Shown: positions 6,804-11,479, numbered from the stretch's first letter. The stretch: DNA of 64,000 nucleotides from Dictyostelium discoideum (GCA_000004695.1 CM000150.2:416001-480000), one strand, 5' to 3'. Numbers and translations are program-made. Notes: generated by a model from the letters alone, not told the origin.

Positions 6804-8006
6804 GAAATTAAAGTGGTCCTATTGATTTGGCAACATTTTCTCTCAAATTTATTTAAATTCTAAAACCTCTATAAAAAAAAAAAAAAAAATAATCATAAAA
6901 CTAAAACCTTTAATTTCTTATTTTGCAATTGTAAAATTTAAAAATAAAAAAAAAAAAAACAGCTAAATATTGTTTTATTTTTTTTTTTTTTTTTTTGAAT
7001 TAATCAAAAAAAGTAATATTATATTTTTATAATTTATGAAAATAATAATAATAAAAAAAATTAAAAAAATTAAAAAAAAAAAAAAAATAGATATTTTTTT
7101 AAAAAAAAAAAAAATTAAGTCACCTGACATTCAAAAATTTTTGTTTTGTTATTTTTTTCATTTTAAAAATAGAATAAGCAAATTAGTGAAAAGACCTTTC
7201 AAATAAATCTTTACTTTTTTTTTTTTTTTTTTGAAAATTCATTCTCAACAGCAACAACAACTCTTTTATATTTGCCCGGAATTTAAAAAATTCCCATGAT
7301 CATACATAAGGTCTCTTTTTTTAATTTTTTTATTTTTTAAAAAAAAGAAAATAAAAAAAAATAAAAAAGTAAACCGAAAATTTTTTTACTTTTTTTTTTG
7401 CTCTATTTTTTGTTGTCATAATTGAATCAGAAACTTTTTTTTAGTTATATGACAATATAAATTTATAATTTTAGTATTATCTGTTACCTTTTTTTTTTTT
7501 TTTTTTTTTTTAAAGAAGTTGATTATAACAAAAAAAAAATAAAAAATAAAAAATAAAAAAAAAAAAAATAATAAAAAAAAAACAGTAATAATAAAAAAAA
7601 AAAAACAAATAAACCATAAAAAAAACCAGTGGTTTAATATAAAAAAAAATTTAAAAAAAAAAAAATATGGTTGTTTAATTTAATATTGTGGTGAATTTAT
7701 CCATTTTTTTATTATCAAAAAAAAATTTTTTTATTCACCAGTGTTTTAATTTTATCCAAATTGTTTTTTTTTTTTTTGGGTTATGTAATTATGGCGTAAT
7801 AAAATTGGTGCTGAGTACAATATTATGTAAACAAAAACATAGGTTTTACATAGATTTTTATATTTTTTTTTTTCGAATACAAAAACCGGCCATTTTGATT
7901 TTTTTTTTTTTTTTTTTAATTTTTTTTTTAACAATTTAATTTTACCATTTTTTTTTCTTTTTTTTTTTTTTTTCGTTTGTTGTGTTCCATATATAACTAT
8001 ATAACT

Positions 8007-8066
8007 ATGTCTAACCAAAAGAAAAACGACGTATCTTCGTATGTGTTTTTTTTATATATTAAATAT

Positions 8067-8137
<71 letters not shown>

Positions 8138-8246
8138 AAATAAATATTAATTTAATATTAATAATATAATAATTCTAACATTAAAAATTTAATTTTTAAA
8201 AAAAAAAAAAAATAGATTTGTTAAAGGTTAGTTAAAAAAAGAAAAT

Positions 8247-8323
<77 letters not shown>

Positions 8324-9518
8324 TTGATAAAAAAAAATAAATCAGGTGACTAAACAAAAAAAAACCGAAAATAATAAATAAATCAAATGATCAAAAAAAA
8401 AAAAAAAATTCTAATATATAAATATTTAAAATAATTTTTTACTATTTAATTAGATTCTTTAATCGGTGGTACTGCCGGTGGTGTCTCAAAAACTATTGTT
8501 GCACCAATTGAACGTGTTAAATTATTATTACAAGTTCAATCTGCTTCAACTCAAATTGCTGCTGATAAACAATACAAAGGTATCGTCGATTGTTTTGTTA
8601 GAGTTTCAAAAGAACAAGGTGTCATCTCATTATGGAGAGGTAATTTAGCCAATGTTATTAGATATTTCCCAACTCAAGCTCTTAACTTTGCCTTCAAAGA
8701 TAAATACAAGAAATTCTTCGTCAGACACACTGCTAAAGAAAACCCAACCAAATTTTTCATTGGTAATTTATTATCTGGTGGTGCTGCTGGTGCAACCTCA
8801 TTACTCTTTGTTTACCCATTAGATTTTGCCCGTACTCGTTTAGCTGCTGATGTTGGTACTGGTTCAGCTCGTCAATTCACTGGTTTAGGTAACTGTATCT
8901 CTTCAATCTACAAGAGAGACGGTTTAATCGGTTTATACCGTGGTTTTGGTGTATCTGTCGGAGGTATCTTTGTCTACAGAGCTGCTTTCTTTGGTGGTTA
9001 CGATACTGCTAAAGGAATTTTATTAGGTGAAAACAACAAGAAAGCTTCATTCTGGGCTTCATGGGGTATCGCACAAGTTGTCACTACCATCGCTGGTGTA
9101 GTCAGCTACCCATTCGATACTGTTCGTAGAAGAATGATGATGCAAGCCGGTCGTGCTGATATTCTTTATTCAAGTACCTATATGACTATTTAACTACTAT
9201 TTCATTTCACTTTCACTCTACCTATCCAATTCACTATTTGTTTTTGTACTTTCTCATATAATTTTTTTTTCTCTCTCTCATCGGCCTCCTCTGTCCTTCT
9301 CATATAAATATTTTAATTGTATATTAATATAATCTTTTTTTTAATTTATAGGCACTTGGGATTGTTGGGTAAAGATTGCCACCCGTGAAGGTCCAACTGC
9401 CTTCTTCAAAGGTGCTTTATCAAATGCCATCAGAGGTTCAGGTGGTGCTTTAGTTTTAGTTATTTATGATGAAATCCAAAAACTTATGGGTTTTGAAGGT
9501 GGTGTTGGTTCTGAATAA
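8007..9518 (+). CDS. ancA: Mitochondrial ADP/ATP carrier (ADP/ATP translocase), 4 exons: 8007..8038, micro-exon 8216..8226 (11 nt), 8454..9173, 9352..9518; 309 aa
   Basis: The translation carries the mitochondrial-carrier signatures and ANT-specific motifs: '...[16 protein letters not shown]...[11 protein letters not shown]...[17 protein letters not shown]...[12 protein letters not shown]...[17 protein letters not shown]' in exon 3 and '[43 protein letters not shown]...GGVGSE*' in exon 4. Exon 1 is ATG..'[10 protein letters not shown]' ending in phase 2 at the GTATGT donor (8039). The only way to keep frame into exon 3 (acceptor TAG at 8451-8453) is through the 11-nt micro-exon 'ATTTGTTAAAG', flanked by TAG| and |GTTAGT. 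That gives N-terminus [24 protein letters not shown]. Intron 3 (9174-9351) runs GTACCT...TATAG. Confidence 0.9.
8074..8133. repeat. Poly(A) homopolymer of about 60 nt inside ancA intron 1
   Basis: Uninterrupted A run read directly in the sequence. Confidence 0.9.
8250..8319. repeat. (TAA)n microsatellite of about 23 units inside ancA intron 2
   Basis: Direct reading of 'taataataataa...' at 8250-8319. Confidence 0.9.
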
Positions 9519-9716
9519 GAAAATCCGCAAGAAAAAAAACAGGATTTTAACTAAAAAAAAAAACATACATGAAATATAAAATAAAACTTTTTAAAAAAAA
9601 AATACTATAAAAAAAACTATCTTTAATTTTGATAATTCTCTTTTTTTTTTGATTTTGTTATATTTTTATAATTACTGTGTGGTAATATTCCCTCCATATT
9701 CCGATCGATTTATTTT

Positions 9717-9850
9717 ATTTTTTTCGTAGAAGAATGATGATGAAAGCCGGTCTTGCTGATATACTTTATTCAAGTACCTATATGACTATTTAACTACTAT
9801 TTCATTTCACTTTCACTCCGTCTGTCCTATTCACCATTTGTTTTTGCACT
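9717..9850 (+). repeat. Degenerate duplicate of the ancA exon3/intron3 junction (matches 9124-9262), lying about 200 bp downstream of the ancA stop
   Basis: 9721-9850 'cgtagaagaatgatgatgaaagccggtcttgctgatatactttattcaagtacctatatgactatttaactactatttcatttcactttcactccgtctgtcctattcaccatttgtttttgcactttatcttat' aligns with 9124-9262 at roughly 90% identity. It includes the [17 protein letters not shown] coding end and the GTACCT intron start, with scattered substitutions. Confidence 0.8.
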
Positions 9851-10061
9851 TTATCTTATAAATTTAAAATAAATAATAATGCAATTTTTTTTATTTTTTT
9901 ATTTTGAAATTTCATTTAATTGTTTTAGTGTATGATTTTATTTGTTCGTGTAATCATTTTATTAATGCATTGAAATATTTAAATGATAAAATAATTAAAC
10001 TAATATTTATATTATTGAATTGGCTTGGGTAAGTGAAAAAACTATAATTACTATTATTATT

Positions 10062-10082
10062 TATTATTTTTTTTTAATATTA

Positions 10083-10113
<31 letters not shown>

Positions 10114-11479
10114 AACGGACATGCATTTTTGGATGATGCATAGATTGTTTGATTGCAAATGGAGTTATTAACAGTGGTTAAGACGGTGAATTCAGTATTG
10201 GAGCATCTAATATATACCTTTATCTCTGGTTTGGTTGTACAAATGGTAGGGGTAGATGATGAATTAAATGAAATTAAAATATTGTTTGATGTGTTACTAC
10301 TTGCAATAAATGGTACTTTGGATACTGTAGGTTTATCAAGGAATGGAATGGTTGTTTTTCCAAGTCCTAAAATAAGACAACCATAATACTTTCCACTTAA
10401 TCTTGAGAATTTATTACATACATCAACAGTACCACCGAAATTGAAAAGGAATCTATTGGGTTCTAGAGCTGACGAATATGGATTTGATGATGATGTTCTT
10501 TAATAATTTTTTTTTTTTATCAGTAAAATAAAATCTATAAAAGAAAATAATAATAATAATAATAATAAAATACATACAATTTCAATGATCTTAAATCATA
10601 TTGATTGCCACCAAATAAGTATTTGTTTTCAATTGGACAGGCAAATTTAGTGGAGATTTGTTGGATACCTTGTACCATTGACTGAAACACGTTATTGAAT
10701 TGGACCCTCACCAGCTGTAGCAGTACATAAAGTTGATGTTTCACAAAGACTAAAATAAAAAATGTTGCTACCATTTGTTGTAGTATATTGTGATGGTCCT
10801 AAAACACTATTGAGATTAATTAATTAATTTAATTTTTTAAAAATATAAAATAAATAGGTTAGATAATAAAATAATGATAAATTAAAATAAAAATAAAATA
10901 AAAGAATACATACTTTGAAGTTGGTGATAAATCGAAAAATCTATTTTTAGAATCTTGGAAAACACATCTATTTTTAGAATCTTTAGTATGTGGACTATCC
11001 ACTCTAGCATTTTGAATGAAATCATAGTGGTTTGTATCAGAGTATGTATAAACATAATTGTAAAGACTATAAAATGGAATGGTTTTTGGATTTCCAACTT
11101 CTACAGTTAATAATGATTGAATAGAATTAACTTGGTCTTCCAATACACCAATCGAAGCACGAGAGGATATATCGGTTGTCTTTGATTGAGCAGAGGTTGA
11201 ATTTGATTCGAGTGATGATGTTTTTGGTGCAATGAATTGGAAATTACTTTCAAAGAAACACAAATTATTTGAATTTAATGATTGATAAATCATTGGTTTT
11301 TTATCATTATTGGCTGCATTTAATAACTCTATGAAATATGTTTTGAAATCATAAACATTTTCTTTATTACTTAACACATCAATTAAAAATGATACACTTG
11401 ATTCTTTAAAACCTTCTAATTCATATAAATCATAAAAGAATGATGTTATTGAAGAGCTGTAATATGATTGAACATTCAA
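10062..11479 (-). CDS. Ill-defined minus-strand gene or gene remnant: a long open frame at 10859-11479 with no ATG, and an open terminal-exon-like frame at about 10062-10498 ending in a hydrophobic tail (…ACPFYLFIYLFIYLFIIL*). The structure is not resolved.
   Basis: A 206-codon stop-free frame (10859-11479) has Dictyostelium-like composition, ends at a GTATGT donor (10913) and begins just after an in-frame TAA with only a TTG start. A second stop-free frame of about 145 codons (about 10062-10498) reads '...CNKFSRLSGKYYGCLILGLGKTTIPFLDKPTVSKVPFIASS...ICTTKPEIKVYIRCSNTEFTVLTTVNNSICNQ...'. I could not connect these in frame with canonical splice sites. Confidence 0.3.

Follow-up and report, generated by a model that had tools for sequence, protein, structure and literature searches.

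Directly downstream of ancA, which we take to be the main ADP/ATP carrier gene, the genome of Dictyostelium discoideum AX4 repeats a short piece of that gene, spanning the boundary between its third exon and third intron. We asked what this duplicate is, how it came to lie there and why it still resembles its parent so closely. The window analyzed here is the whole 64,000-nt stretch of chromosome 1 in which the gene lies (GCA_000004695.1 CM000150.2:416001-480000), and positions are counted from its first nucleotide unless given as chromosome coordinates. On the evidence set out below, we consider it moderately probable that the duplicate is a non-coding, unprocessed pseudogene fragment of ancA, a neutral relic that gene conversion has kept similar to the gene. 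The core of the first-pass annotation of this DNA, which read the duplicate as small, old, local and partial, with its coding sense broken, is upheld by the alignment and by the substitutions.

The ancA locus and its repeat in AX4

The exons of ancA lie at 8007-8038, 8216-8226, 8454-9173 and 9352-9518, and their spliced product has 309 aa. When 416000 is added, these coordinates agree with the GTF of PMC5295588, which puts the gene at chr1:424007-425518. The same GTF confirms exon 2, an 11-nt micro-exon (ATTTGTTAAAG). The stop codon occupies 9516-9518. The AATAAA that follows it is likely the poly(A) signal of the gene, with cleavage predicted around 9,595-9,610, and the AX4 RNA contig L010 terminates at 9561, inside an A-run. 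The gap between the ancA stop and the stop of a convergent open reading frame on the other strand measures 561 nt, with the copy at its midpoint (Table 1).

Table 1. Features of the ancA locus in the AX4 window, and extents of the junction copies in all genomes that have one. Window positions are given for the first eight rows; in the remaining rows, extents are counted from the G of the intron 3 5' splice site as position 0.
Feature	Position	Strand or orientation	Basis or remark
ancA (ADP/ATP translocase, DDB_G0267454), parent gene	8007-9518	+	spliced translation identical to P0126/O97470 (AX4)
ancA intron 3, GT..AG, 178 nt	9174-9351	+	sequence and spliced model
Parent block: last 51 nt of exon 3 (9123-9173) and first 92 nt of intron 3 (9174-9265)	9123-9265	+	ungapped comparison
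T9 and CT-rich tract of intron 3	9266-9305	+	right-hand end of homology
AATAAA, the sole one between ancA stop and copy	9580-9585	+	138 nt upstream of copy
Copy: exon-derived 9723-9773, intron-derived 9774-9865	9723-9865	+	comparison with parent
55-nt run identical to parent 9164-9218 (-10 to +44)	9764-9818	+	run-length test
Terminal coding exon of convergent ORF (stop 10080-10082)	10080-10499	-	ORF reading
AX4 copy	-51 to +91	direct	
FIR copy	-61 to +85	direct	L006 5710-5843, offset 640 nt
FIW copy	-48 to +86	direct	L008 5781-5899, offset 621 nt
D. cf. discoideum FIZ copy	-105 to +251	direct	reaches 46 nt into exon 4
D. cf. discoideum FIY copy	-126 to +19	inverted	
D. citrinum FIU copy	-58 to +98	direct	96.8%
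D. citrinum FIV copy	-58 to +169	direct	
D. firmibasis copy	-10 to +110	inverted	
D. purpureum copy	-57 to +175	direct	core 96.4%
Tieghemostelium lacteum copy	-60 to +145	direct	

Parent block and copy (chr1:425723-425865) form an ungapped direct repeat in which 130 of 143 positions are identical (90.9%; blastn E=1e-53). Their offset is exactly 600 nt, and the flanks of the two blocks, compared at that offset, are 29–31% identical, the level of random sequence. The first-pass annotation had reported a copy of the exon 3/intron 3 boundary at about 90% identity, some 200 bp 3' of the ancA stop, and had proposed a local alignment as a check. When the alignment was run, the identity stood and the flanks proved random, the distance from the stop codon was measured as 204 nt, and only the edges had to be moved slightly, to 9123-9265 for the parent and 9723-9865 for the copy. 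In a dust-filtered self-BLAST of the whole window, this repeat stood far above every other, and just two copies of the block occurred in the 64 kb, both at ancA.

Identity is spread unevenly along the block. The exon-derived part matches the parent at 48 of 51 positions, and its three differences (in parent coordinates, 9143 C>A, CAA>AAA; 9153 G>T, CGT>CTT; 9163 T>A, ATT>ATA) are exactly the codon changes that had been listed beforehand. The 5' splice-site sequence AAG/GTACCT is kept at 9774. The first 45 nt of the intron-derived part are 100% identical to the parent, and the next 47 nt are 79% identical and hold ten differences. As the first reading of the sequence had noted, the homology ceases where the parent intron enters its T9/CT-rich tract, at 9266; a poly-T tract forms the boundary of the homology also in FIR, FIW, FIZ and D. 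citrinum FIU. Intron 3 as a whole has an unusually C-rich, G-poor composition (C 20%, G 5%). Its proximal part shares this composition and carries no indels between strains.

Junction copies in other dictyostelids

The ancA locus was compared between AX4 and eleven other assemblies, so that ten genomes with intron 3 and two without it were covered. Self-comparison of each locus revealed a junction copy, 190–800 nt beyond the ancA stop and inverted in two cases, in 10/10 genomes that have intron 3. None was found in the two genomes with an intron-3-less ancA, those of Polysphondylium violaceum and D. dimigraforme (0/2). The lineages that bear a copy span two families, Tieghemostelium lacteum belonging to the Raperosteliaceae, another family than the Dictyosteliaceae, and the intergenic DNA between them is otherwise unalignable.

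The 5' splice site is kept in every copy, including the truncated inverted pair. From -10 to +19, the copy matches the parent of its own genome in all ten genomes, with one mismatch in total, and this 30-mer varies between species. In D. citrinum, D. purpureum and T. lacteum, high identity begins at -57 to -60.

In FIR and FIW, which belong to the D. discoideum complex, AX4 can be aligned collinearly over the entire interval between stop codon and copy, the copy included, and the copies are orthologous. Identity of AX4 to these two strains is 84–89% in the copy and 85–90% in introns 1 and 2, compared with 76–78% in flanking intergenic DNA and 91% in the parent intron part. Directly after the copy (from ~9866-9878 onward), the homology of AX4 to both strains breaks off abruptly to 51%, while FIR and FIW remain 91% identical to each other there. 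The right edge of the copy therefore coincides with a rearrangement breakpoint. The convergent open reading frame of AX4 has no counterpart in FIR within 4 kb.

The copies of FIZ and FIY have in common a 3-nt and a roughly 10-nt deletion and are thus orthologous, despite the inversion in FIY. Homology to the left of -51 did not extend significantly in AX4 (p=0.75); such an extension is significant in FIY only and visible in FIZ, and it is about 27% diverged. FIZ also contains an inverted segmental duplication on the minus strand (L001 8767-8382 and 8078-7846), 2.4–3.3 kb downstream of ancA, which takes in intron 3 (from +24 onward) and exon 4 as well as the 3' UTR and the junction copy that follows it.

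The ancA gene of D. dimigraforme (L007 5051-5166, 5305-5386) has another intron layout, with no intron at the D. discoideum intron 3 site. Downstream of it lie degenerate copies of the end of exon 4 and of the 3' UTR (L007 5795-6035 and 6206-6260), which are preceded by sequence like the distal part of AX4 intron 3 (p=0.004). A partial pseudo-copy with an exon-intron-exon structure, 92% identical, lies ~4.4 kb upstream (L007 592-1001). This species has an intron 62 nt upstream of the intron 3 site (TAC CC/A TTC), near the left limit of the block in other species. That this intron marks the ancestral left breakpoint is an attractive idea, but it is unproven and conflicts with the left extensions of FIZ and FIY.

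In T. lacteum, the equivalent of intron 3 (L012 4971, compared with 9174 in the window) is placed 5 nt further 3', after ACT and in phase 0, whereas the Dictyostelium site is TCA A/GC in phase 1. The shift reflects either intron sliding or an independent gain at almost the same site. With tblastn, the T. lacteum copy seemed to reach as far as residue 210, but about 6/30 positions beyond the core were identical, and this extension was dismissed as spurious. A metagenome scan matched only intronless transcript contigs of about 1 kb, which carry no genomic context.

Copies evolve in concert with their own parents

A neighbor-joining tree was computed for the core from -58 to +59. In T. lacteum, D. 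purpureum, D. firmibasis and both D. citrinum strains, the copy pairs with its own parent. In the two D. citrinum strains the copies occupy an orthologous position, with flanks that can be aligned on both sides; copy and parent differ by 1.4% within each strain, and the block differs by about 15% between the strains. Homogenization must thus have occurred independently in each strain, after their split.

The D. discoideum complex presents a mosaic. The copies of FIR and FIW are sisters in the tree, and those of AX4 and FIR have copy-specific states in common in the distal part of the intron, which points to an old orthologous copy. At five sites, all within intron positions +1 to +40, parent and copy agree within each of the strains AX4, FIR and FIW yet differ among strains. 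Given 13 mismatches in 143 nt, the perfect 55-nt run in AX4 is longer than random placement leads one to expect (P=0.018), and it may represent the latest gene-conversion tract in this strain.

Among the copies, long stretches without a mismatch to the parent measure 55 to more than 90 nt. In each lineage, identity peaks at the splice site and drops toward the edges, where indels occur. Such a gradient from center to edge is expected of a long-term balance between conversion and mutation, and not of duplications of random age. Transfer may occasionally have run in the other direction as well, as is hinted at by the FIY parent gene, which has the ATA codon that is otherwise typical of copies. 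In the deeper lineages, each copy is far more similar to the parent in its own genome than to the copies of other genomes; within the D. discoideum complex, perfect tracts are arranged as mosaics, and strain-specific substitutions appear in both parent and copy. These patterns in the alignments are those of concerted evolution by ectopic gene conversion. A literature search on gene conversion and concerted evolution in Dictyostelium found nothing relevant; we regard the ancA copies across dictyostelids as a moderately interesting, unreported case of concerted evolution in a very short non-coding duplicate.

Coding potential and transcripts of the copy

The copy contains 51 nt of exon with no upstream coding continuity, and it lies past both the stop codon and the AATAAA. 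Its reading frame reaches a stop 6 codons beyond the splice site. Two amino acids are replaced in AX4 (Q>K and R>L), and other nonsynonymous changes are found in the FIZ and FIY copies. In T. lacteum, the mRNA contig L013 terminates 139 nt short of that species' copy. The homology includes 92 nt of intron, and neither intact coding potential nor gene context remains, as is the case for an unprocessed partial gene duplicate.

A processed pseudogene or retrocopy is ruled out, since the copy retains this piece of intron 3 and has neither a poly(A) tail nor flanking direct repeats. Its intron content and its position beside the parent mark it as a duplicate made at the DNA level. A transposable element or introner was also rejected: within the 64 kb, the block is restricted to its two occurrences at ancA, and it includes host exon. 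Finally, intron gain by tandem duplication was rejected, as self-BLAST of the gene detected the downstream junction copy alone and gave no homology of the ends of intron 3 to the flanking exons.

RNA folding of both blocks on both strands gave no stable structure (z = +0.4 to +1.8 relative to shuffled sequence), the parent block being, if anything, less structured than shuffled sequence. A search of positions 7500-11000 against Rfam at E<=10 returned only noise, the best match being the archaeal snoRNA sR28 (16 bits against a gathering score of 39; E=0.54). This sub-threshold match is a false lead, caused by the RRRMMM codons at 9732-9761 and 9132-9161, whose sequence ATGATGA...CTGA mimics box C and box D. 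A scan for the DUSE promoter of non-coding RNAs found none near the copy, and the single match, inside exon 4, was attributed to chance.

In the portion of PMC5295588 considered here, the developmental lncRNA catalogue records neither an antisense partner of ancA nor any locus on the plus strand between this gene and DDB_G0267616; antisense reads over ancA amount to 0.2% of sense reads. The same portion describes ancA as very highly expressed in growth, with a strong fall in development. Two papers on miRNAs and small RNAs (PMC6161686, PMC2175303) mention neither ancA nor the sequence of the block.

One ancient duplication or several

The reading that we prefer, a neutral relic maintained by conversion, would begin with a local duplication of the 3' module of ancA (end of exon 3, intron 3, exon 4 and 3' UTR), placed just downstream of the gene. 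In the AX4 lineage, most of this second module would have been lost, with only the junction fragment surviving. The repeats, 600 nt apart, would then undergo occasional ectopic gene conversion, which would keep the fragment like its parent; the middle of the fragment would be overwritten repeatedly, and the edges, converted more rarely, would drift. The same process in other species would keep each fragment matched to its own fast-evolving intron.

A longer duplicate, comprising the whole 3' module, probably preceded the present copy, and lineages would have kept different pieces of it: the FIZ copy spans into exon 4, the FIY copy has its left extension, and D. dimigraforme has copies of exon 4 and the 3' UTR. 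The pieces may differ in their fate. A downstream 3' splice site followed by a decaying exon 4 could rival the real exon 4 and be selected against, while a 5' splice site on its own, past the poly(A) site, would be harmless, so that the junction piece would outlast the exon 4 piece. Such functional interference is a plausible reason for the survival of the junction in particular.

Persistence in 10/10 genomes with intron 3 is striking for neutral DNA and speaks against a neutral relic. So do the 5' splice site kept in every copy, the match to the own-genome parent over -10 to +19, and the left limit at -57 to -60 in three deep lineages. Conservation of the copy between strains at about the level of introns is compatible with neutral sequence that is overwritten from a slightly constrained donor. 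The occurrence of both orientations fits the maintenance of homology at the DNA level better than a strand-specific role of an RNA.

A single ancient event must be weighed against recurrent independent origins, in which replication template switching or break repair at the heavily transcribed 3' end of ancA would repeatedly, in different lineages and in either orientation, have inserted a few hundred bases of the exon 3/intron 3 region into the termination zone, each such non-functional copy then being subject to conversion. Several features of the locus would suit such a history. The copies lie in both orientations, and their extents range from -126 to +19, through -10 to +110, to -105 to +251. 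Secondary duplicates in FIZ and in D. dimigraforme indicate a structurally unstable locus. The homology to FIR and FIW breaks off directly after the AX4 copy, and the right boundary lies at a poly-T/CT-rich tract. The left extension of FIZ and FIY, at merely ~27% divergence, must be much younger than the splits of D. purpureum or T. lacteum, which is awkward for one ancient event. However, three deep lineages (D. citrinum, D. purpureum and T. lacteum) have the left limit of the block at nearly the same point, -57 to -60, a spread of about 3 nt. This would be unlikely if the copies had arisen independently, and it argues for common descent. The gradient from center to edge, present in all lineages, suits an old copy at equilibrium better than events of random age, and the D. 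citrinum pair directly demonstrates independent conversion at one orthologous site. We rate recurrent origins as rather doubtful, and a single old duplication may be the better account of where the copies came from.

Could the copy be a selected element

Under another explanation, the copy would be a homology-dependent regulatory module maintained by selection, acting through antisense RNA or siRNAs or as a decoy 5' splice site or U1 site. Antisense transcription in the termination zone between the convergent genes would produce RNA able to pair with the exon 3/intron 3 junction; where the copy is inverted, read-through from ancA itself would give such RNA. Antisense RNA or siRNAs of this kind would hit unspliced pre-mRNA only, either masking the weak GTACCT or silencing nascent transcripts, and could add to the 10–20-fold drop of ancA mRNA in development. 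In a variant, the copy in read-through RNA would serve as a decoy 5' splice site or U1 site and influence 3'-end formation.

Several observations would be in keeping with such a role. The copy is present wherever intron 3 is present (10/10 genomes) and absent where intron 3 is absent. The segment from -10 to +19 is identical to the parent within each genome and not between species, as base-pairing would predict, and the mismatch-free stretches (55 to more than 90 nt) would be long enough for siRNA targeting. The AX4 copy lies midway between convergent stop codons, and ancA expression is very high in growth and strongly down in development. Nevertheless, gene conversion by itself yields identity within genomes without conservation across species. 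Conversion centered on a short block of homology also predicts the retention of the copy, the inclusion of the splice site and the identity from -10 to +19, so these features do not discriminate between the two explanations. The gene downstream of ancA in D. purpureum is on the same strand, and the nearest minus-strand gene in T. lacteum is 1.7 kb away; with a variable orientation of the copy and neighbors that are not conserved, no single transcriptional arrangement suits all species. The low proportion of antisense reads over ancA and the lack of a catalogued antisense lncRNA, both within the portion of PMC5295588 considered, together with the silence of the two small-RNA papers, likewise speak against a regulatory module, as does conservation of the copy between strains at about the level of introns.

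A regulatory module thus seems unlikely. A selected element that would predate the split of Dictyosteliaceae and Raperosteliaceae, and would tune ancA through antisense RNA, siRNAs or a decoy site while conversion keeps regulator and target matched, is if anything slightly less likely still. If the copy were selected, it would represent an unusual self-targeting regulatory design. On the reading that we prefer, the copy would have no function.

Gene models that include the copy

Gene model P0122 of D. citrinum FIV (L003 4001-5956) bypasses the stop codon and takes in the junction copy as a further exon, giving 340 aa. Gene model P0123 of D. cf. discoideum FIY (L004 4001-6863) fuses ancA to about 100 unrelated downstream residues. 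Both deposited models are probably wrong.

P0122 raises the question of whether ancA uses the copy as a coding exon, alternative or extra, with '...GFEGGV' spliced to a peptide of 19 residues. Apart from this annotated protein, which takes the copy in, the reading can draw on the exon-derived peptide, which is intact in D. citrinum and T. lacteum. Yet the stop codon and AATAAA both precede the copy, and the mRNA contigs of AX4 and T. lacteum end before it. The other models of the cluster, that of the second D. citrinum strain included, end in GVGSE at about 309 aa, P0123 being a different fusion. The AX4, FIZ and FIY copies carry nonsynonymous changes, the left edge has no coding continuity, and the repetition of 19 transmembrane-carrier-motif residues after the C-terminus is structurally senseless. 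An extra exon is therefore very improbable, and P0122 is most simply a homology-guided prediction artifact.

A false duplication in the reference assembly, which the suspiciously round offset of 600 nt might suggest and which had been named as what would overturn the first reading, is scarcely credible: the blocks differ at thirteen positions, copies that are collinear, orthologous and independently diverged are present in the separate assemblies of FIR and FIW (640 and 621 nt), analogues occur in seven further genomes from different projects, and the round number is shown to be a coincidence by the offsets of the direct copies elsewhere in the D. discoideum complex (640, 621 and 698 nt).

Comparison with known systems

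Unprocessed pseudogene fragments that lie beside their parent are alike in being partial copies made at the DNA level, with intron included and with coding sense and gene context lost. The ancA copy differs from them in that it comprises only 143 nt around an exon-intron junction. A copy of this type is, moreover, present in every intron-bearing relative examined, in two families, and is not a lineage-specific relic.

Textbook cases of concerted evolution by ectopic gene conversion are the gamma-globin genes HBG1/HBG2 and the pseudogene-gene pairs CYP21A1P/CYP21A2 and GBAP1/GBA. They resemble the ancA pair in a similarity that is greater within a genome than between orthologues, in mosaic perfect tracts and in possible two-way transfer. 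In contrast to them, the homology at ancA extends over only ~150 nt, is mostly intronic and non-coding, and has a spacing of 0.6–1.2 kb; its host is a haploid, AT-rich protist, and the partner of the gene is a junction fragment and not a gene or full pseudogene.

In the Rogers model, introns are said to arise by tandem duplication of an exon segment that contains AGGT, a model reportedly tested by Hellsten and colleagues in 2011. Like that model, the ancA locus involves local duplication of sequence containing a splice site, and copy and intron 3 are perfectly correlated in their presence. However, in that model the ends of the intron are homologous to flanking exon and the duplicate lies inside the gene, whereas the duplicate at ancA is found past both stop codon and poly(A) signal, and no duplicated exon makes up intron 3.

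Plant miRNA genes are reportedly born from inverted duplication of target-gene sequence, as described by Allen and colleagues in 2004. Here too, a nearby gene fragment matches its target over tens of nucleotides, and in two lineages it is inverted. Unlike such miRNA genes, the ancA locus has one arm only and forms no hairpin or foldback; it is not known to give rise to small RNAs, and its copies are mostly direct.

Significance and further observations at the locus

As a single feature in one genome, the AX4 copy is an ordinary small pseudogene fragment. Across genomes, a non-coding fragment of ~150 nt has stayed matched to the parent gene in five or more deep lineages of dictyostelids. The ancA copies thereby offer a clean natural system in which the tract length, direction and frequency of conversion between very short repeats can be studied in a haploid, AT-rich genome. 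Since the direct repeats flank exon 4 of ancA, they could also give rise to deletions by single-strand annealing and, through conversion from copy to gene, bring mutations into ancA. For annotation, the copy misleads homology-guided gene prediction, as the false exon of P0122 in D. citrinum illustrates. The first-pass suggestion that it might act as a decoy for read mapping is trivially true of short reads, which are ambiguous over the 55 identical bases.

Further observations concern the introns of ancA and the neighboring gene. Intron 1 contains an uninterrupted A61 homopolymer (8074-8134) and intron 2 a (TAA)n microsatellite of ~70 nt (about 8250-8320); the differences between AX4 and FIR/FIW in these two introns are chiefly large indels. 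The 5' splice site of intron 3 is weak and fast-evolving. It reads GTACCT in AX4, GTAGCT in FIZ, GTAGGT and GTAAGA in D. citrinum, GTAATT in D. firmibasis and D. purpureum, and GTTCGT in T. lacteum. A Pfam search with the convergent terminal exon and a 206-aa upstream open reading frame (10080-11479, minus strand) gave no match. The terminal exon contains cysteine and ends in a hydrophobic FYLFIYLFIYL tail.
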